A DNA stretch of 64,000 nt from Escherichia coli (lineage in GTDB: Bacteria; Pseudomonadota; Gammaproteobacteria; Enterobacterales; Enterobacteriaceae). Within the stretch, counting starts at the first letter, position 1. Every line of letters starts with the position of its first letter. The notes beneath the pieces were generated by a model. That model was not told the DNA's origin and searched no databases. It saw only the letters and a list, made by a program, of their open reading frames with translations. The stretch lies in NCBI RefSeq assembly GCF_044324875.1, contig NZ_CP172188.1; one strand, given 5' to 3'. A program made the translations under genes and the position numbers. Of the stretch, positions 597 through 64,000 are shown piece after piece.

Positions 597-1022
597 TCAT
601 TCCGGCGTTGACTGGTTTTGAACGTAAGCCCTGAGTGTTTCAATCGTTGCTCCTCCGGTACTACATGCAAAGTAGGCTCTCGACCAAAGCAAGCCTGTTT
701 TGCTCTGTGTTCGTAAATGTGTGTTTTGTTGACGTAGCAGACGTGACGATACTGATTTCAAATTATTCACCATTACGCTGACTGCCAGCTTTGGCGGATA
801 GGCAACCAGTAGATGTACATGATCTGCTTCTCCATCCATTTCAAGAATTTCGCATTCAAGTTTTGCAGCAGCGGAACAAAAAGCTTCCCGTAGTTGCTCT
901 ATCATGCAGCCGTCAAAAAGTTTTCTGCGGTATTTTGTAGTGAAAATTAAATGCACAACGAGCTTACTCACGCTGTGACGTTTCCGAAGGAATCCCTCAA
1001 GGGATTCATGCTGTTCGCTCAA
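597..1022 (-). CDS. tnpA: IS200/IS605 family transposase TnpA (Y1 HUH transposase)
   Basis: 141 aa; HVHLLV (HuH) motif and the size typical of IS200 TnpA. Confidence 0.85.
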   Translation of the reverse strand: MSEQHESLEGFLRKRHSVSKLVVHLIFTTKYRRKLFDGCMIEQLREAFCSAAAKLECEILEMDGEADHVHLLVAYPPKLAVSVMVNNLKSVSSRLLRQQNTHLRTQSKTGLLWSRAYFACSTGGATIETLRAYVQNQSTPE

Positions 1023-3118: not shown

Positions 3119-3697
3119 ATGCAGAAACAGAGCTATTGGGAGAAACAGAGACAAAAAGCCATGCAAAAATTGGCTGACCCAGCCTGGCGAGAGGAACAAA
3201 GGGCAAAGCGCCTTCAACAAGCTCAACGCCAGCAGCAGCGAGCGAGAGAAAAAGCCGCATCGCCTGAATATCGGCAAAAGAAAATTGAAAAAGCAAAGCA
3301 ATATGAACAGCGGAGAAAAGATAAAGCTGTATCCGCTCCGCCCAAAAAAACACGCACGTCACGCGGCCTGAAGGGCAGATCACTCACAGCCGATGAACGC
3401 CGGATACAGACCGCTATCGGTACTCTCCCCTGCATTGCCTGCCATATTCACGGGCAACATAGCCCAGTGGTATCCCTGCACCATATCTTCGGGAGAACGG
3501 CAGAGAACGCACATAAATATGTCCTCCCTTTGTGTAAATGGCACCACCAGTACGCAGCGCCAGCCGAGGTCCGAGAACAATATCCCTGGCTGGTCCCTGT
3601 TCATGCTGATGGAAAAATAGGCGGAAAAGCAGATTTCATACGGCACAATGCCGATGAAATGGCGTTGTATCAGATGGCGATTGAATTAATAAATTAG
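3119..3697 (+). CDS. Ref-family (DUF968-like) HNH-type nuclease-like protein
   Basis: 192 aa; basic low-complexity N-terminus then LPCIACHIHGQ...SLHHIFG...LPLCKWHH Cys/His motifs; GAGG Shine-Dalgarno. Confidence 0.5.
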   Translation: MQKQSYWEKQRQKAMQKLADPAWREEQRAKRLQQAQRQQQRAREKAASPEYRQKKIEKAKQYEQRRKDKAVSAPPKKTRTSRGLKGRSLTADERRIQTAIGTLPCIACHIHGQHSPVVSLHHIFGRTAENAHKYVLPLCKWHHQYAAPAEVREQYPWLVPVHADGKIGGKADFIRHNADEMALYQMAIELIN

Positions 3698-3707
3698 TTT
3701 TCTAACA
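3698..3707 (-). promoter_or_regulatory. copy of dispersed motif (reverse orientation, TTTTCTAACA) just after the Ref-like gene
   Basis: Reverse complement of the TGTTAGAAAA core. Confidence 0.3.
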
Positions 3708-4028
3708 TTTTAAGTTGAATTGTAAATTTCTCCGATGTACATTCACTACCGATTGGCACACCGGTCAACTTTTTGAGACAAACTGTTTAGTTTTTCGTAT
3801 TATTGCCCCCGCCATACCTATGGCGGTGCAATATAGGTGGCTGAAAAGCCCCCGTTGACTCACGGTGTTCCAGCCTTTATTGCGCCGCCACCAGACCGTG
3901 GAACAGTCGATGGCGGCTCCGAAAGCAAGGAGTCACTACACTATGAACAACTACAGTCTTTTCCCATCACTCGTCGTCCACCACTCACGCGATAATCTGC
4001 ATTCTTTATTCGCGCTGGGGGAGTCAAA

Positions 4029-4196
4029 ATGACTGTTCGCTACCTCAACTTTCAAATCAAGAACATTACTGGCGGTTGCTATGACTGGTTTGTCACTCTC
4101 GGAAAAGAAGTGATTACCGGGAAGCTGGATGAAGTGAAAGCTAAAGCAATGGCCTACGCCTGCAAGCAAGCCCGGAAGAAATCCGCCAAAGCATAA
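4029..4196 (+). CDS. small hypothetical protein (55 aa), coupled to an upstream 29-aa ORF at 3943-4032
   Basis: GGGGGAG before ATG; ATGA overlap with the upstream mini-ORF; followed ~100 nt later by a terminator. Confidence 0.25.
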   Translation: MTVRYLNFQIKNITGGCYDWFVTLGKEVITGKLDEVKAKAMAYACKQARKKSAKA

Positions 4197-4301
4197 AATA
4201 CTGACTGTTGCGCCCTGGCATTATCGTGGGGTATATTTCTACGGCACCTTAGAAAAACGGGTGCCGGGATTGGAACCCCGGATAATGCAAAAGGCGACAC
4301 A

Positions 4302-4323
4302 GACGCCGAAAGCGTCTTTTCTT
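4302..4323 (+). terminator. rho-independent terminator candidate
   Basis: gacgc-cgaaa-gcgtc hairpin followed by ttttctt. Confidence 0.5.
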
Positions 4324-4329
4324 GTGTCA

Positions 4330-4508
4330 TGCCATCGCACAGCCATACGTAGCGTTTAGCTCAGAGATCAATGGTAGTGCTGGCTGGGCTGCCGAAAGGC
4401 AGGCCGGTTCCCTTTTGCGCCGGTAGTTCCAACCCAGTCAGTGCTACCGCCATTGAGATTGGAACCTCACGCGGTAGCTCCTTAAATTAGCAAAAGGAGG
4501 CTGCCAAT
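4330..4508 (+). promoter_or_regulatory. structured leader of antirepressor module A (differs from the leaders of modules B/C/D)
   Basis: Hairpins ctgcc-gaaa-ggcag (~4388-4401) and gttccaa...ttggaac (~4415-4458); AGGAGG before the ATG at 4509. Confidence 0.3.
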
Positions 4509-4724
4509 ATGGCTACTATCCCTACCCCAACTCATTCTGAATTTATCTGGCGTTTCTATTCCTGCCAAAAACACCTGTATATCTGCGTCATGGCTGCAAC
4601 CGAAGCAGAAGCTCGTTCATACCTTCCTGAAGAACCCTGCATTTTTGCCGCACGCTTCACTCTTGATGCGATGGAGATCCTCAATTACTGGAATCTGCCA
4701 ATGAACTGCGTGGAGGTGCACTGA
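4509..4724 (+). CDS. small protein upstream of the antirepressor (Icd-position ORF, module A)
   Basis: 71 aa; stop overlaps the ATG of the next gene (TGATG); paralogous to 28238-28462, 38110-38325 and 63376-63600. Confidence 0.6.
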   Translation: MATIPTPTHSEFIWRFYSCQKHLYICVMAATEAEARSYLPEEPCIFAARFTLDAMEILNYWNLPMNCVEVH

Positions 4725-5665
4725 TGAATCTGTCCATCTCTCAAAAAGCGACAATGACCAGCATTGAGATCGCGGAACTGGTAGGAAGTCGCCAAGATAG
4801 TGTGAAGAGAACTATCGAAACACTGGCTAAAAAGAGTGTGATCCAATTTCCACAATCTGTGGAAATTGAAAATAAACAATCAGTTGGCCCTCGTCGATTT
4901 TCCAAGGCTTACATCTTTGAAGGCGAACAAGGCAAGCGCGATAGTATCATTGTCGTCGCACAGCTCTCTCCGGAATTCACCGCCCGGCTGGTGGACCGCT
5001 GGCGCGAACTGGAGAATGCCAGGGGACCGTTAAAATCAAAAGCCGAAATCCTGGCTGAAATGGCGCAAATGCATCTTGAGCATGAACGCCGGATCAACGC
5101 CGTAAATGCCCAGGTAGCCGAGGTATCAGCACAAGTATCGATGGTCGCTGAAACACTCGAGCAAATAAAGAAAGGCAATATGCCGGAAGGCTACATTGGC
5201 TACCGCCAGCTGGCGGCGAAATGCGGCCTGACTGAAGCCAAATGTCGCAACCTGGTTAACGCTTACCGGATACCCACTGATACGCATGAGTTTTTGACTC
5301 CCGACGGTTTGCTTGCGCGACGCTCAATTGTGGCCCTGGCCCCCTTCCGGAAAGCCTTTAAGCAGGTTATGTCGGAGGCAGAACCACGCAACAAACGCTG
5401 GTATCATCCAAAGATGGGGATGTTTCAGGCAATCCACCATCCTGTGCCTGAAAGTCCAAAGGCAAACCTGTCGTTGCATACCGCCAGAGAGAGGATTAAA
5501 ACAGGGTATGCAATCGTATGCCGTCGAGCATCTTGGCCTGAAGGTGTATGGGTATGGCCCGAAGGTGGATCACGAAAGCACTGGCGCACTATCCGGGATG
5601 GGAAAATCCATGCGATTGATTTAGCTCCAGAGGATGTTGTTGCTACGGACTGGATTGTTAGTTAA
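4724..5665 (+). CDS. phage antirepressor-type protein (Rha-like N-terminal domain plus conserved C-terminal domain), module A
   Basis: 313 aa; N-terminus ...MTSIEIAELVGSRQDSVKRTIETL... resembles the Rha regulatory domain; C-terminal ~180 aa nearly identical to the module B and C proteins. Confidence 0.6.
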   Translation: MNLSISQKATMTSIEIAELVGSRQDSVKRTIETLAKKSVIQFPQSVEIENKQSVGPRRFSKAYIFEGEQGKRDSIIVVAQLSPEFTARLVDRWRELENARGPLKSKAEILAEMAQMHLEHERRINAVNAQVAEVSAQVSMVAETLEQIKKGNMPEGYIGYRQLAAKCGLTEAKCRNLVNAYRIPTDTHEFLTPDGLLARRSIVALAPFRKAFKQVMSEAEPRNKRWYHPKMGMFQAIHHPVPESPKANLSLHTARERIKTGYAIVCRRASWPEGVWVWPEGGSRKHWRTIRDGKIHAIDLAPEDVVATDWIVS

Positions 5666-7607: not shown

Positions 7608-8363
7608 TTAACGCGTTTTTTCGCTGCTTTCCACTACCGGGGGATTTTTCCTCAGTGACTCTCCCTGAAGGACCACTCGGTGTGAGTTATGTACCAGTCT
7701 GTCCAGGATGGCATCTGCTGTTGTTGGGTTCTCCATCAGACCATGCCATTTATCTACCGGGAACTGGCTTACCACTATCGTGCTGCTTTGTCCGTAACGA
7801 TCCTCTATGAGCTCCAGAAGGTCATTACACTGGGCGTTACTTAACTGTTCCAGCCCCAGATCGTCCAGGATTAGAACCTGTATTTTTTGCAACTGTTTCA
7901 GATATTTCAGCCAGCTGCCATCAACACGTCCCTGAGCCAGTTGTTCCAGTAATCGCCCGGTTCTACAGTACCGGACGCTGTGTTTCTGTCGACATGCCTG
8001 TTCGCCCAGCGCATTGGCTATCCAGCTCTTGCCACATCCTGTCGGACCGGTTATCAGCAGGTTTTTCCTGTGGGTTATGTAGTGGCCGTTCAGCAGTTCT
8101 CTCATCTGTTCAGCCCGCAGACCTCTTGAGGCCGGATAGCGCAGCCCTTCCGGTGTTGCCTGGTATTTCAGGCCGGCATTTTTTCTCAACCGTGCCACAC
8201 GGCTGTTTTCCCTGCTCAGAAGCTCGTCATCAACCAGCAGCGTCAGCCTTTCCTCGAACGACAGTTCGTCGTAGGTCTGAGGCGTTTCCCGCTGCCGTAT
8301 CAGGCTCCCGGCCATCGCCGGGAGTTTCAGTTGGGTCAGTTTGTTTAACAGGTTATCACTCAT
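7608..8363 (-). CDS. istB: IS21-family transposition helper ATPase IstB
   Basis: Walker A GPTGCGKS, DExx-like LILDDLG; start set at MSDNLL with AAGGAA Shine-Dalgarno; the ORF track extends upstream to 8606. Confidence 0.85.
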   Translation of the reverse strand: MSDNLLNKLTQLKLPAMAGSLIRQRETPQTYDELSFEERLTLLVDDELLSRENSRVARLRKNAGLKYQATPEGLRYPASRGLRAEQMRELLNGHYITHRKNLLITGPTGCGKSWIANALGEQACRQKHSVRYCRTGRLLEQLAQGRVDGSWLKYLKQLQKIQVLILDDLGLEQLSNAQCNDLLELIEDRYGQSSTIVVSQFPVDKWHGLMENPTTADAILDRLVHNSHRVVLQGESLRKNPPVVESSEKTR

Positions 8364-8379
8364 ACTGTTGTTCCTTCTG

Positions 8380-9915
8380 TCAGTGGTAGTAGCCCGGACC
8401 ACGCAGGTTTTCATGCTCTGAAGCATATGCCGGATGTTGTTCGCCCTGGCGGGATAATGGAAGCTCCAGGTTCTCCCGATGGTGACGCAGCAGATTGTCG
8501 ATAAAGCGTCTGTCAGGGGCGTTATAGTGCAGGGCAACGTAACAGGCCTTTTCCAGCCGTTCCGGGCCGTATTTTTTCTGAAGTGCCAGCAGCCCCAGAA
8601 CTGCACGATAAGCCAGTTCCGGATGGGGTTTTGCCTTCAGCATGGATTCAACCACCCGGCCTGTGGACGGGCCCGTACGTTTTCCCTGCTCGATCAGGCG
8701 TTCCGGTGTCCATGTCCCGTGCTGCCGGTGGCGCTCTGGCATGTGAAGCGGATTGGTTGTGTGTTTATATTCATGTGTGCTGCGCGGATGTTGCGCCACA
8801 CACTGCCCCTTGTGCCAGAGCTGTACCACCGACTGCCCCGCCTTCAGTGACAGACGCTGACCGACCAGTTCGTGTGGAACGGAGTACCAGTGACGGGCAT
8901 ATTCAACGTGGTAGTCAGGGCCAACCTTCACAGCTTTGTATTCCGTGTATTCATAAGGTGCCAGAGGCAGCGGAGAGAGTGCTGGCGCATCCAGTATGCG
9001 GAAGCGTTCTGCACGGGTTTGATTGCCGTACCCCTTCATTGGCCGGTTATTCATGTCTGTCAGTAACTCCCTAAGGCGCGCATTCAGCGCCCTGAGCGTG
9101 TGGAAGGTTTCATTACGGATGCGGGCAAGAAGCCATCGTTCAACGATGAGGACGCCGTTTTCTGCTTTTGGTTTATCTTTAGGTTTGCGTGGTCGGGCCG
9201 GGATGATAACCGTGCCATAGTGCTCAGCCAGTGCCTGATAACTGTCGTTGATGACAGGCTCATATCGATCGGCCTTTTTCACTGCGCTTCTGAGGTTATC
9301 GGGGATGAGCAGCTTCGGTACGCCGCCCAGGAAGGTCAGGCAACGGCTGTGGGCATTTAACCATGACATCATGTCCTGACCTTCGCACGCTTCAACGTAG
9401 GTATAGTTGGACGCCCCCATTACGGCCACGAAGATTGCCACGCGGCGTATCTCACCGGTGTCCGGATTAATAACAGGAACCGTAGGACCACAGAAGTCGA
9501 TAAAAAGCTTTTCGCCGGCACGATGCTCCTGGCGCATGGAGAGACGTCGCGTTTTTTTCCACTCCCGGTAGCAACGGCAGAAGTGCGAGTATCCCATCGC
9601 TTTGTTACCCGCCTGTGCCTTGTATTCCATCCACAACAGTTGCCGCGTCACACCTGGTTTTCTCATTTCCGTATCGAAGTACAACATGTCAGGCATTACA
9701 AGCTCTGATGCAAAGGTGTCTTTGGGCGGAAAAATGAGTTTCTCCAGCGTGTCATGGGATATATCAGCAGGTAATGGCCATGACAGAGAAGAGGCTTTGA
9801 AGCGGGCAAGAACCTCAAAAACGGTTGAGGCGCTGATGTGTAACGTCAGTCCGATACAACGGTTAGTCAGCTTCTTGTCGAACTTGAGCTGAAGGATCTT
9901 AAAACAGGTTTCCAT
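8380..9915 (-). CDS. istA: IS21-family transposase IstA
   Basis: ~511 aa from METCF... (AGGAG Shine-Dalgarno); N-terminal HTH and a DDE-type core; the ORF track extends to 10026. Confidence 0.85.
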   Translation of the reverse strand: METCFKILQLKFDKKLTNRCIGLTLHISASTVFEVLARFKASSLSWPLPADISHDTLEKLIFPPKDTFASELVMPDMLYFDTEMRKPGVTRQLLWMEYKAQAGNKAMGYSHFCRCYREWKKTRRLSMRQEHRAGEKLFIDFCGPTVPVINPDTGEIRRVAIFVAVMGASNYTYVEACEGQDMMSWLNAHSRCLTFLGGVPKLLIPDNLRSAVKKADRYEPVINDSYQALAEHYGTVIIPARPRKPKDKPKAENGVLIVERWLLARIRNETFHTLRALNARLRELLTDMNNRPMKGYGNQTRAERFRILDAPALSPLPLAPYEYTEYKAVKVGPDYHVEYARHWYSVPHELVGQRLSLKAGQSVVQLWHKGQCVAQHPRSTHEYKHTTNPLHMPERHRQHGTWTPERLIEQGKRTGPSTGRVVESMLKAKPHPELAYRAVLGLLALQKKYGPERLEKACYVALHYNAPDRRFIDNLLRHHRENLELPLSRQGEQHPAYASEHENLRGPGYYH

Positions 9916-10307
9916 AGTGCTCCTGGATTTTCTCTTTCTGGACATTGACGTCTCCACTGGTTTAAACACGGCAATGGAGACTGTGGTGAAAAGAGTTAAT
10001 TCCCGGAGTGACTGGCAGGATGCCAATCAATGATCGGAAGCATGCCAAATCGTGATCGATTGTGATGCCAAACTGTGATCGGAGATGGATGCCAAATCAT
10101 GATCGATTCGAATGCCAAACTGCGATCGATTCAGATGCCATTTTGCAGCCAAATTTCTGTCAAAAAATAAAATCCACAAAAAGTGGTTGACACTATTTTG
10201 GAAATCACAAACTGCACATAATCCATCGCGCTAACGGCTCCCGTTGAAGGTTCTTTTGACGATTAACTTTCAGCCGAAGCGCGGTAGGGAGTCATAACGC
10301 CAAAGCA

Positions 10308-27961: not shown

Positions 27962-27990
27962 TTGATCTTCCATGTTTTCAGGCTTATATT
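27962..27990 (+). promoter_or_regulatory. sigma70-like promoter of module B
   Basis: TTGATC - 17 bp - TATATT; identical sequence in module D and, reverse-complemented, in module C. Confidence 0.5.
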
Positions 27991-27996
27991 CACGCC

Positions 27997-28237
27997 GTTG
28001 CAGCAAATTCTGCGACCGGGTTTAGCAGCCTGAATGTACATGCGGACAACCGCAGATATCCGATATTGCGGTATTTTTGTGTCCGTAAAACCATGTTACG
28101 CCCGAATTATGGTGGGGCGTGATGGGGAGGCTTCGGCCTGCTGGTTTCATGTACGCCAGTCTGCTAACCCCGTCACGTCCTGCCACCCGTTTAGCAGCGG
28201 GTAGCAGGTTGTTAAACCTGTACATGAGGCCGTAACT
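27997..28237 (+). ncRNA. structured leader with an embedded c4-like antisense regulator and two target sites (module B)
   Basis: Elements TTAGCAG/GTACATG at 28022-28042 and 28191-28226 (the second abuts the GAGG Shine-Dalgarno) are complementary to CATGTAC/CTGCTAA at 28148-28167; the complementarity is kept by compensatory changes in modules C and D. Confidence 0.5.
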
Positions 28238-28462
28238 ATGGTTAATGCCAATCCTTGCTCACGTCCAGAATTCATCTGGCGTTTTCACTCCCTGCAAAAA
28301 CACTGCGATCACTTCGCAATTGCCGCAACTGAAAAAGAAGCCCGTTCTCTGATCCCTGATCAGTATGGTGTTCTTACTGGTCGTTTCTCTACTTCCCCAC
28401 AACCAAACACTAATCCCTGGTATCGCAATATTACCAATCCCGGAATTGCGGAGGCACACTGA
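28238..28462 (+). CDS. small protein upstream of the antirepressor (Icd-position ORF, module B)
   Basis: 74 aa; TGATG coupling to the next gene. Confidence 0.65.
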   Translation: MVNANPCSRPEFIWRFHSLQKHCDHFAIAATEKEARSLIPDQYGVLTGRFSTSPQPNTNPWYRNITNPGIAEAH

Positions 28463-29382
28463 TGGATATCTGCATTCTTGAAAAGCCATCAATGACCAGC
28501 ATTGAGATCGCGGAGCTGGTGGGAAGTCGTCCAGATAACGTAAAAATATCAATAGAGCGCCTGGCTAAATCTGGAGTTATTCAACTTCCTGCATTGCAGG
28601 TTTTCGAAAAAATCAATAACTTAGGACTACGCCGTAGTGTCGAGGCTTACGTCTTCGAAGGCGAGCAAGGCAAACGAGACAGCATTATTGTCGTTGCGCA
28701 GCTCTCTCCCGAATTCACCGCCCGGCTGGTGGACCGCTGGCGCGAACTGGAAGAACAAGTACGCCAGCCGTTGACCGAAATAGAGATGATCGCCGCAATG
28801 GCTGCAAATGCAGTTCAGCAGCAAAAGCGGCTTCATGTTGTTGAGTCAAAGGTTAGCCAGGTTGCTGAAACCGTCGAGCAGATCAAGAAGGGCAACATGC
28901 CAGAAGGTTACATTGGCTACCGCCAGCTGGCGGCGAAATGTGGCCTGACTGAAGCCAAATGTCGCAACCTGGTTAACGCTTTCCGGATTCCCACCGATAC
29001 GCATGAGTTTTTAACTCCAGATGGTTTGCTTGCGCGACGCTCCATTGTGGCCCTGGCCCCCTTCCGGAAAGCCTTTAAGCAGGTGATGTCGGAGGCAGAA
29101 CCACGCAACAAACGCTGGTATCATCCGAAGATGGGGCTGTTTCAGGCAATCCATCATCCTGTGCCTGAAAGCCCAAAGGATAATCTGTCACTACATACCG
29201 TCAGAGAGAAGATCAGGACTGGATACGCAACAGTGTGTCGTCGTTCTTCCTGGCCTGAAGGTATATGGGTGTGGCCCGAAGGTGGATCACGAAAGCACTG
29301 GCGCACTATCCGGGACGGGAAAATCCATGCTATTGATTTAGCGCCAGAGGATATTGTTGCTACGGACTGGATTGTTAGTTAA
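28462..29382 (+). CDS. phage antirepressor-type protein (Rha-like N-domain), module B
   Basis: 306 aa; N-terminus ...MTSIEIAELVGSRPDNVKISIERL...; conserved C-terminal domain. Confidence 0.65.
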   Translation: MDICILEKPSMTSIEIAELVGSRPDNVKISIERLAKSGVIQLPALQVFEKINNLGLRRSVEAYVFEGEQGKRDSIIVVAQLSPEFTARLVDRWRELEEQVRQPLTEIEMIAAMAANAVQQQKRLHVVESKVSQVAETVEQIKKGNMPEGYIGYRQLAAKCGLTEAKCRNLVNAFRIPTDTHEFLTPDGLLARRSIVALAPFRKAFKQVMSEAEPRNKRWYHPKMGLFQAIHHPVPESPKDNLSLHTVREKIRTGYATVCRRSSWPEGIWVWPEGGSRKHWRTIRDGKIHAIDLAPEDIVATDWIVS

Positions 29383-63100: not shown

Positions 63101-63129
63101 TTGATCTTCCATGTTTTCAGGCTTATATT
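63101..63129 (+). promoter_or_regulatory. sigma70-like promoter of module D
   Basis: TTGATC-17-TATATT, identical to module B. Confidence 0.5.
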
Positions 63130-63135
63130 CATGCC

Positions 63136-63375
63136 GTCGTAGCAAATTCTGCGACCAGGTTTGACAGCCTGAATGTTAGTGCGGACAACCGCAGATTTCC
63201 GATATTGCGGTATTTTTGTGTCCGTAAACCGCGTTACGCCCGAATTATGGTGGGGCGTGATGGGGAGGCTTCGGCCTGCTGGTTTCACTAACGCCAGTCT
63301 GTCAACCCTGTCACGTCCTGCCACCTGTTTGACAGCGGGTAGCAGGTTGTTAAACCTGTTAGTGAGGCCGTAACT
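63136..63375 (+). ncRNA. structured leader with a c4-like antisense regulator (module D)
   Basis: TTGACAG/GTTAGTG at 63161-63181 and 63329-63364; complementary CACTAAC/CTGTCAA at 63286-63305. Confidence 0.5.
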
Positions 63376-63600
63376 ATGGTTAATGCCAATCCTTGCTCAC
63401 GTCCAGAATTCATCTGGCGTTTCCACTCCCTGCAAAAACACTGCGATCACTTCGCAATTGCCGCAACCGAAAAAGAAGCCCGTTCTCTGATCCCTGATCA
63501 GCATGGTGTTCTTACTGGTCGTTTCTCTACTTCCCCACAACCAAACACTAATCCCTGGTATCGCAATATTACCAATCCCGGCATTGCGGAGGCACACTGA
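63376..63600 (+). CDS. small protein upstream of the antirepressor (Icd-position ORF, module D)
   Basis: 74 aa, near-identical to the module B copy. Confidence 0.65.
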   Translation: MVNANPCSRPEFIWRFHSLQKHCDHFAIAATEKEARSLIPDQHGVLTGRFSTSPQPNTNPWYRNITNPGIAEAH

Positions 63601-64000
63601 TGGATATCTGCATTCTTGAAAAGCCATCAATGACCAGCATTGAGATCGCGGAGCTGGTGGGAAAACGTCATGACAATGTGAAGCGTACCATTGAAACATT
63701 AGCCGAATCCGGCGTTATTGTTCGTCCTCAAATTGAGGATGAACCAAAAATAGATGTAATGGGGCGTTCTCGATTAATTCAGGTGTTCCGATTTAGCGAC
63801 GAGCAAGGCAAACGAGACAGTATCATTGTAGTCGCACAGCTTTGTCCTGAGTTTACTGCCCGGCTGGTGGACCGCTGGCGCGAACTGGAAGAACAAGTAC
63901 GCCAGCCGTTGACCGAAATAGAGATGATCGCCGCAATGGCTGCAAATGCAGTTCAGCAGCAAAAGCGGCTTCATGTTGTTGAGTCAAAGGTTAGCCAGGT
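63600..64000 (+). CDS. phage antirepressor-type protein (Rha-like N-domain), module D, truncated by the window end
   Basis: MDICILEKPSMTSIEIAELVGKRHDNVKRTIETL...; frame open to position 64000. Confidence 0.6.
   Translation, partial: MDICILEKPSMTSIEIAELVGKRHDNVKRTIETLAESGVIVRPQIEDEPKIDVMGRSRLIQVFRFSDEQGKRDSIIVVAQLCPEFTARLVDRWRELEEQVRQPLTEIEMIAAMAANAVQQQKRLHVVESKVSQ

Follow-up and report, generated by a model that had tools for sequence, protein, structure and literature searches.

A putative two-stage, P1 immI-type immunity operon with tandem C4-type RNA modules in a D6-like phage-plasmid

Between the ref gene (3119-3697) and position 4330 of a 64,000-nucleotide stretch of Escherichia coli DNA (contig NZ_CP172188.1 of assembly GCF_044324875.1, hereafter the window), no open reading frame (ORF) is longer than 72 codons. 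A first-pass annotation made from the letters alone described this interval as a non-coding stretch with hairpins, two coupled mini-ORFs and a terminator, which raises the question of whether it is a spacer or part of a functional unit. We find that 3700-4330 is the upstream half of a compound P1-immI-type immunity operon and not an empty spacer, and that the unit extends beyond 4330 into a canonical C4 antisense RNA (C4-II), an icd-like gene and the antirepressor gene ant (Table 1). The hairpins, mini-ORFs, Shine-Dalgarno sequence, gene overlap and terminator described earlier are all found in the sequence. The stretch is not non-coding, since its 55-codon ORF (4029-4196, orf85) is a conserved protein gene. 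The suggestion that the interval could encode a small RNA is borne out twice by Rfam matches, one to the IsrK family and one to the C4 family (C4-I).

Over 1.1 kb, the surroundings of the locus match Escherichia phage D6, a plasmid prophage related to P1, at 96.8% identity and several 93-kb E. coli plasmids at 100%. By its sequence, then, the window is a D6-like (P1-related) phage-plasmid. The segment 3700-4240 is present in 119 plasmid records from Escherichia, Salmonella and Shigella hosts, nearly all of which are non-mobilizable and approximately 90 kb in length. The locus can be explained by known kinds of element placed in tandem, with functions predicted from their sequences, and it is with moderate confidence that we read it as a two-stage P1 immI-type immunity operon in which C4-I is followed by an IsrK/C4-II module. 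One relative, pSa1423 (L005), was left out of all inferences because it carries many small indels that resemble sequencing errors.

A divergent C4-type RNA and its leader

The gathering scores set by Rfam are 45 bits for C4 (RF01695) and 50 bits for isrK (RF01394). C4-I matches the C4 model with 40.2 bits (E = 1.6e-5). Its relatives score 36.5-39.5 bits (38-39.5 bits in Escherichia fergusonii and Shigella dysenteriae plasmids), and its positional counterpart in L075 and L076 reaches 48.1 bits. Both the minimum free energy structure and the centroid structure of C4-I have the C4 shape, with an outer stem, two hairpins and a single strand before the closing strand (-36.2 kcal/mol; z = -4.6 relative to shuffled sequences). 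C4-I also lines up with canonical C4 RNAs in register, and across the family 13 of the 17 outer-stem pairs are compensated. The loop of the second inner hairpin presents the segment a' (UGACUC, 3856-3861), the segment b' (UGUUCCA, 3866-3872) is single-stranded, and the RNA ends in a ...GCCACCA tail after the stem. This tail is the sole sequence feature bearing on RNase P excision; by analogy with P1 C4, C4-I may be excised by RNase P and may repress in trans.

The leader that separates C4-I from the first mini-ORF contains exact complements of both segments, and one of them, a2-I, lies within the AAGGAG Shine-Dalgarno sequence of the 29-codon ORF. This Shine-Dalgarno sequence, noticed in the first-pass annotation, is confirmed at 3927-3932, 10 nt ahead of the ATG at 3943. 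C4-I thus shows the target complementarity of a C4 RNA, with one of its sites on a ribosome-binding site. The pattern TGGAACA-N(10-40)-GAGTCA occurs once in the 64-kb window, as compared to 0.06 expected occurrences, and that occurrence is situated between C4-I and the ATG. The predicted duplexes have energies of -9.5 and -8.7 kcal/mol, and of 2000 shuffled leaders, 17 do equally well; with only 6 nt in the a' loop, the pairings are no longer than 6 and 7 bp. Neither target site varies among the relatives from the D6 and E. fergusonii lineages. Among relatives, C4-I is 91-96% identical and C4-I together with the leader 82-100% identical, as compared to 52-69% for the DNA upstream and 40-78% for the mini-ORF. 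The exact C4-I core was found in 32 IMG/VR contigs, and orf85 is present in 32/32 of them. When duplex energies were computed for the five C4 RNAs of the window against all of their leaders, each RNA was found to pair best with its own leader. The a' segment of C4-I is orthogonal to the other C4 RNAs, and the b' core GUUCCA is common to C4-II of the window's specificity type.

Two further interaction sites for C4-I were considered and dropped. A second target at the Shine-Dalgarno sequence of orf85 (GGAGTCA, 4020-4026) reads GGGTGTC or GGGGGTC in most relatives. An upstream a1/b1 decoy at 3753-3769 is weak (-13.6 kcal/mol, with 120 of 2000 shuffles as good) and is not kept in L032 or the E. 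fergusonii lineage. A true a1b1 element for the first C4 was found only in L075 and L076.

Two candidate promoters, Pa and Pb, precede C4-I and may drive its transcription, to judge by their hexamers and conservation. Pa matches the consensus at 8/12 positions and is unlisted by the promoter scan because of that score. L040 has exactly the same Pa block despite an orf85 protein of only 62% identity, and the block is near-identical in the L029, L032 and E. fergusonii lineages, where the surrounding DNA is 52-69% identical. At Pb, GAGACAAA is invariant and the -10 element retains TAnnAT in every lineage that carries C4-I, while L040, which is without C4-I, is also without Pb. At the end of ref, ATTGAATTAATAAATTA (3672-3700) agrees with the consensus of the P1 C1 operator at 13/17 positions and may serve the operon as a repressor site; a similar TAAATTT core is found ahead of the conserved promoter block in L040.

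A leader hairpin had been placed at approximately 3820-3836. It exists, about 10 nt upstream of that position (CGCCAT-ACCT-ATGGCG in the DNA). It is 100% paired in 9/9 distinct variants, with one compensatory change of C-G to U-A and five changes to G-U wobble. This pairing is not significant (59 of 500 shuffles are as good), and the sequences barely vary. A scan for terminator-like structures returned 9 sites in 3 kb as compared to 3.9 ± 2.4 expected, so a lone short hairpin is not significant either.

The icd remnant and orf85

As had been reported, the 29-codon ORF overlaps the 55-codon ORF through the sequence ATGA. Alignment of the DNA shows that the first of these ORFs corresponds to the icd gene of E. 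fergusonii and S. dysenteriae plasmids with internal deletions, its start and last few codons having been retained. In those plasmids, ref is followed by C4-I, an intact 61-aa Icd-like gene (NF033153, E = 1.8e-12) and orf85, with no IsrK/C4-II/icd/ant module beyond orf85 (L004 and L006). The 29-aa product has no match among PHROGs or Pfam models, NCBIfam not being among the models scanned, and is not assignable to the Icd-like family on that basis. Given that its homology to icd rests on the DNA alignment, we regard the 29-codon ORF as an icd remnant rather than as a member of NF033153.

The reading frame of this remnant has been maintained. It is open in 29/29 distinct variants, with a length of 29 or 31 codons in the D6 type, and the indels found in L029 and L032 (-3 and +9 nt) are in frame. 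The ATGA overlap is retained in every variant that has a short separate ORF and a locatable orf85 start; three E. fergusonii-type variants have the intact 61-codon gene and a 60-nt gap ahead of orf85. Substitutions in the 29-codon ORF number 5-6 non-synonymous to 1 synonymous, and the per-site non-synonymous difference is at least as large as the synonymous one (pN >= pS). Thus, the two mini-ORFs, whose conservation had been proposed as a check, are conserved in different ways: orf85 as a protein, and the 29-codon ORF in its frame only, its amino acids having drifted. The conserved property of the 29-codon ORF would be its translation into orf85 and not the encoded peptide. The earlier idea of a leader peptide holds in the loose sense that the ORF behaves as a translated coupling ORF; being a deleted icd, it is not a classical attenuation leader. 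The first 78 nt of the mini-ORF contain 35% C and 9% G (C/G 3.9), and the start of the downstream icd contains 29% C and 10% G (C/G 2.9), which is the composition that would be expected of Rho entry sites.

Variants of this junction were also observed. The 60-nt gap in L004/L006 (2850-2909) contains a strong hairpin, GCTGGTGG-CTTGTT-CCACCAGC, and orf85 has its own GAGGA Shine-Dalgarno sequence there. In L033, a +1 insertion makes a single 84-aa frame of the 29-codon ORF and orf85, and the protein clusters P0001, P0002 and P0005 (83-85 aa, ending in orf85) are consistent with a fusion of the same kind. The upstream ATG at 3910, used as the start of orf86 in the D6 annotation, was rejected in favor of 3943, since the E. 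fergusonii lineage does not conserve it and no Shine-Dalgarno sequence precedes it.

Judged by its substitution pattern, orf85 is a real gene under purifying selection, with a pN/pS of approximately 0.1-0.25 against five lineages. No sequence match to its product was found in Pfam, NCBIfam or the Protein Data Bank (PDB). An AF2 model (predicted local distance difference test score, pLDDT, of 68) has four strands and a C-terminal helix, and Foldseek returned no fold match, the best PDB hits having E > 2 and the hits to archaeal Hfq not being meaningful. The family is rare, with 16 clusters in a set of 5.8 billion proteins; a profile search of 1.84 billion proteins retrieved 13 representative clusters, four of which are long repeat proteins and probably spurious.

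In four plasmid lineages (five loci examined), orf85 either heads an immI-like operon or lies within one. In L040, the conserved promoter block is followed directly by orf85, isrK (69.4 bits), C4 (80 bits), icd and a short ant. In L075/L076, the order is ref, an a1b1-like element, C4 (48.1 bits), orf85, isrK (61 bits), C4 (79.5 bits), icd and repL; orf85 is represented there by a distant homologue (P0021) that was retrieved by profile search only. This gene order indicates that the tandem C4 arrangement recurs in a distant lineage. We suggest that orf85 may be a modulator of lysogenic immunity. Distant homologues of 57 aa are also found in L078-L080 (3001-3174), in the early region of an unrelated phage of approximately 65 kb and beside a Mu gp6-like gene, and no C4 or IsrK match was found near them.

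The IsrK, C4-II and antirepressor module

The later hairpins and the terminator of the first-pass annotation fall within a single RNA that matches the full length of the isrK model, above its gathering threshold (Table 1); the D6 copy scores 59.1 bits. The two hairpins are confirmed as GCACC...GGTGC (hairpin 1, 4244-4264) and CGGG...CCCG (hairpin 2, 4265-4280). The loop of hairpin 2 carries the segment b1 (AUUGGAACC, 4269-4277) and is followed by a1 (GCAAAAGG, 4287-4294). The terminator, which was also found by the terminator scan, has its stem at 4301-4317 and a U-tract up to 4323. A promoter-like site precedes the RNA; it falls under the promoter-scan cut-off, and the isrK genes of L075 and L040 are preceded by TTGAAT...TATGAT or TATGGT. 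Hence, an IsrK-type arrangement is present, with a promoter-like site, a Rho-independent terminator and, downstream on the same strand, C4-II, icd and ant.

The predicted duplexes of C4-II with b2 and a2 of the icd leader have energies of -8.8 and -13.9 kcal/mol, and those of b1 and a1 of IsrK with b' and a' of C4-II have energies of -8.8 and -15.0 kcal/mol, so IsrK is complementary to the RNA downstream of it. When the read-through RNA is folded, IsrK pairs in cis with C4-II. Among D6-like elements, the six sites (a1/b1 of IsrK, a'/b' of C4-II and a2/b2 of the icd leader) co-vary without exception. Four specificity types were found, in which a is GCAAAAGG or GUCAAAGG and b is UUGGAAC, UUGAGAC or UUGGUCU. 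C4-II therefore shows matched changes between specificity types, while C4-I is invariant across them. This three-way co-variation argues that IsrK, C4-II and the icd leader interact.

The Rfam consensus lines are likewise complementary (isrK loop UUGGcA, C4 UgCcAA). The Rfam c4-a1b1 motif (RF03163; Weinberg et al. 2010, PMC2864571) has a match at 4231-4284 that overlaps isrK, with 22.4 bits, which is below the gathering score of that motif. At the same position in L040, the scores are 42.4 bits for c4-a1b1 and 69.4 bits for isrK. These overlapping scores suggest that the two models describe the same kind of element. From these matches, IsrK would appear to be the a1b1 element of a C4 system and a competitor for C4.

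Table 1. Positions of the features of the locus in the window.
Feature	Position	Strand	Description
Candidate promoter Pa	3698-3743	+	Block TTTTCTAACATTTTAAGTTGA (3698-3718); -35 TTGAAT (3715-3720); 17-nt spacer; -10 TACATT (3738-3743)
Candidate promoter Pb	3775-3803	+	GAGACA, 17-nt spacer, TATTAT; predicted start ~3810; promoter scan 9/12
Leader hairpin	3810-3825	+	CGCCAU-ACCU-AUGGCG; 3' arm forms the opening 6 nt of the basal stem of C4-I
C4-I, divergent C4-type antisense RNA	3816-3895	+	Outer stem and two inner hairpins; Rfam RF01695
C4-I targets	3899-3935	+	b2-I UGGAACA (3899-3905); a2-I GAGUCA (3930-3935); exact complements of b' and a'
29-codon ORF	3943-4032	+	Internally deleted icd remnant, from DNA alignment with an intact 61-aa Icd-like gene
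orf85	4029-4196	+	55-aa conserved protein; phrog_7786 (PHROG E = 3.6e-43, full length)
Candidate IsrK promoter	4208-4237	+	TTGCGC, 18-nt spacer, TATATT; -10 ends 7 nt ahead of 4244; predicted
IsrK-family small RNA	4244-4322	+	U-tract to 4323; Rfam RF01394, 59.4 bits, E = 1.7e-11, full model length
C4-II, canonical C4 antisense RNA	4367-4454	+	RF01695, 76.7 bits, z = -5.5; outside the span first annotated
C4-II targets	4458-4502	+	b2 AUUGGAACC (4458-4466); a2 GCAAAAGG (4490-4497), overlapping the icd Shine-Dalgarno sequence
icd-like gene	4509-4724	+	71 aa; NF033153, E = 3.3e-13; ATGA overlap with ant
Antirepressor gene ant	4724-5665	+	313 aa; phrog_63 anti-repressor Ant, E = 2.8e-60

Existing annotations represent the locus differently. 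In D6 (window coordinates), orf86 (3910-4032), orf85 (4029-4196), a minus-strand orf84, an icd-like gene and an antirepressor are annotated, and the RefSeq record pF374-2 has orf85, an "ash family protein" (4371-4490) and an icd-like gene. RNA genes are unmarked at the locus in every annotated record examined (D6 and the RefSeq D6-like plasmid), and the region contains no tRNA or tmRNA. The RefSeq "ash family protein" coding sequence (CDS; 4371-4490, plus strand) and D6 orf84 (4154-4453, minus strand) overlie the C4-II and IsrK RNA genes, and both are probably annotation artefacts. The minus-strand ORFs at 3951-4169 and 4154-4330 were treated as spurious, the one being antisense to a plus-strand coding gene and the other lying over an RNA gene.

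Further observations concern a relative with a deletion, and other C4 modules and mobile elements of the window. Relative L020 (IMGVR_UViG_2579778873_000001) has a natural deletion that runs from b1 in IsrK to b2 in the icd leader (equivalent to ~4270-4458) and removes the 3' half of IsrK and all of C4-II; it looks like a recombination between the identical target copies. The L020 sequence past approximately codon 35 of icd also differs. Three further complete a1b1-C4-icd-ant modules are located in the window at 27984-29382 (plus strand), approximately 38578-37100 (minus strand) and 63123-64000 (plus strand). Their C4 RNAs score 68.8-71.7 bits and their classical c4-a1b1 elements 53-55 bits, and their a'/b' specificities are combinatorially different, each with its own matching a1/b1 and a2/b2. 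D6 has a single module of the a1b1-C4-icd-ant type, beside repL, and the window has five C4-type RNAs in 64 kb. An IS200/IS605-type element at 597-2257, with a Y1 transposase (597-1022, minus strand) and a TnpB/Cas12f-like gene (1079-2257), is missing from the equivalent place in D6. An IS21-type element (7608-10026, minus strand; istA 8380-10026, istB 7608-8606) lies approximately 2 kb downstream of ant.

Proposed mechanism, rival explanations and known systems

In P1, RNase P processing of C4, a block of icd translation, Rho polarity and icd-ant coupling have reportedly all been described. Blocked icd translation in P1 leads to Rho-dependent termination ahead of ant. By extension, in the first stage of the two-stage operon, Pa and/or Pb would transcribe a leader from which C4-I would be released by RNase P and 3' trimming, as for P1 C4. 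The b' and a' segments of C4-I would then pair with b2-I and a2-I and mask the Shine-Dalgarno sequence of the 29-codon ORF, a gutted icd of which the translation alone would matter. Ribosomes completing this ORF would restart at ATGA, so that orf85 is translated. A block by C4-I would prevent synthesis of the orf85 product, and the bare C-rich, G-poor start of the ORF would let Rho halt transcription before the second stage. In that stage, the promoter-like site at 4208-4237 would give rise to a 79-nt IsrK-type RNA ending at the terminator, with read-through continuing to C4-II, icd and ant. Since IsrK shares the b1/a1 motifs with b2/a2 of the icd leader, it would compete for C4-II and free icd and ant from repression, in the manner of short IsrK of Gifsy-1. 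Promoter activity, RNA processing, repression at the level of translation, coupling, polarity through Rho, the action of IsrK as a decoy and the role of orf85 are all predictions of this model.

A wider version of the model can be put forward tentatively and with some doubt. Here, the locus would be a serial antisense cascade in which the invariant C4-I gates both orf85 and, via translation-dependent Rho polarity, transcription into IsrK/C4-II/icd/ant. The orf85 product would be a hitherto overlooked small protein of the immunity system, such as one that helps or antagonizes the C1/Ant switch, and would accompany immI regions in several phage-plasmid lineages, and IsrK-type RNAs in general would be the a1b1 "second targets" of C4, that is, anti-antisense decoys.

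Several observations weigh against the two-stage operon. C4-I falls under the gathering score of its family in the window's element, and its a' loop has 6 nt as compared to approximately 12 in canonical C4 RNAs. Neither Pa nor Pb comes near the consensus. C4-I and its targets are invariant among D6-like and E. fergusonii-like variants, so that their interaction has no co-variation to draw on. The pair statistics of C4-I are not significant: 97.6% of cells are paired, 173 of 500 shuffles reach as much, and the stem of one variant contains an A-C mismatch. Because C4-I barely varies, such pair counts are uninformative. The L075 leader that connects the first C4 to orf85 is without b2 and has only a weak a2 (-7.8 kcal/mol), so control of orf85 by the first C4 is not universal, and L040 has orf85 with no C4-I whatsoever. 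Finally, orf85 shows no homology or fold match in the searches of Pfam, NCBIfam, PDB and Foldseek.

Many of these same observations would be expected if C4-I and the 29-codon ORF were decaying relics of a duplicated c4-icd cassette, with only orf85 (expressed from an upstream promoter) and IsrK/C4-II/icd/ant at work. The icd part is plainly degraded, C4-I scores under the threshold and shows no detected co-variation, orf85 occurs without it in L040, and in L075 b2 is gone and little of a2 is left. However, the decay of a relic should keep pace with that of its flanks, and C4-I and its targets are 91-100% conserved as compared to 40-78% for the flanks. The C4-I fold is intact, the frame of the 29-codon ORF survives indels, ATGA is kept wherever the ORF is short and separate, and 32 contigs show a strict linkage of the cassette with orf85. 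We therefore consider decay an unlikely explanation. The 16-bp palindrome at 3810-3825 could instead be a DNA operator for a repressor, given that it is a perfect 6-4-6 inverted repeat in the window's element and directly follows a promoter-like -10 element. The arms in D6, L029 and the E. fergusonii lineage read CGCTAT/ATGGCG, TGTCAT/ATGGCA and CGTCAT/ATGGCG, respectively. These changes keep RNA pairing through G-U wobble and break the symmetry of the DNA, so the hairpin fits an RNA pairing and not a DNA palindrome, and an operator is very improbable.

It has even less in its favor that the 29-codon ORF encodes a functional small peptide, such as a microprotein or a toxin, with the upstream RNA acting as an antitoxin in the manner of a type I toxin-antitoxin system. 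A good Shine-Dalgarno sequence, a conserved start, a frame that is always open and an adjoining antisense-type RNA would all suit such a peptide. Its substitutions are predominantly non-synonymous, though, and many positions differ; its length varies (29, 31 or 61 aa, or a fusion to orf85), it is not hydrophobic, it has no family match in PHROGs or Pfam, and it aligns with the interior of icd with large deletions. The least probable reading is that of a classical transcription attenuator, or the 3' end of ref, with the hairpins as terminators and anti-terminators and the mini-ORF as a translation-sensing leader peptide. Hairpins, a short ORF and a terminator do occur in series, and there is a terminator-like hairpin with a T-run at 3751-3766. 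However, the terminator at 4301-4323 is situated 100 nt past orf85 and not after the leader ORF, and the hairpins are parts of RNAs that match two Rfam families significantly. The mini-ORF is free of regulatory codon runs, takes part in no alternative terminator/anti-terminator pairing in folds of 3805-4330, and runs into orf85. We thus continue to prefer the two-stage operon.

Comparison with P1/P7 immI (a1 b1 - c4 - a2 b2 - icd - ant1/2) reveals the same RNA family (RF01695) in the leader of the operon that it would control, with two exposed segments that pair upstream of and on the icd Shine-Dalgarno sequence, an icd that would be translationally coupled to the next gene, and upstream a1/b1 copies of the targets. 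The four types with matched specificity changes likewise resemble P1/P7 hetero-immunity. Unlike immI, the present locus has two serial C4 modules in one direction of transcription. The a' loop of its C4-I measures 6 nt and an a1b1 is missing in this lineage, the icd of the C4-I module is gutted to 29 codons with the 55-aa orf85 and not an antirepressor as its output, the specificity of C4-I is invariant while that of C4-II diversifies, and the second module has an a1b1 that is closed by an intrinsic terminator and fits the isrK model.

Short IsrK of Gifsy-1 acts in trans on the read-through RNA and activates translation of a coupled ORF and the antirepressor (PMC4825925). The activating mutations G28 and G31 are in the loop of the middle hairpin (hairpin-2), a processed RNA complementary to IsrK lies directly downstream, and in the sections covered the system is likened to P4 CI RNA and not to P1 C4 (PMC4825925). 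Hfq binding and trans-activation of translation by IsrK are known for Gifsy-1 only. The present locus resembles isrK-orf45-anrP-isrJ in having a promoter-like site, an intrinsic terminator that would be read through toward an antirepressor gene, an IsrK middle hairpin complementary to a structured RNA just downstream, and a small ORF whose translation would be coupled to the antirepressor. It differs in that the downstream RNA is a clear C4 (76.7 bits) with a separate icd, while in Gifsy-1 the corresponding RNA is described as overlapped by an ORF (orf45); the antQ and isrJ neighbors are not present, and the element is a plasmid prophage. Like seqA - CI RNA - seqC of P4, the locus would have a processed leader RNA that pairs with complementary repeats up- and downstream, but the RNA family is a different one, and P4 acts by transcription termination and not by a primary block of the ribosome-binding site.

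In the literature covered, which did not extend to the D6 genome paper (Gilcrease and Casjens 2018), we found no description of C4-I, of an icd relic as a coupling ORF, of the place of orf85 in the operon or of the tandem C4 layout. As read from the gene orders above, this tandem arrangement recurs in several lineages. D6 and RefSeq annotations carry spurious CDSs over the RNA genes, and the first C4 copy misses the Rfam threshold. The existing picture of P1-type immunity is not overturned by these findings. Rather, a small conserved gene, orf85, is placed under putative antisense control at the head of immunity operons, and the locus joins the story of IsrK in Gifsy-1 to that of C4 in P1. The four matched types of IsrK, C4 and icd leader, together with a natural deletion of C4-II, provide natural material for probing the role of a1/b1 in C4 systems.

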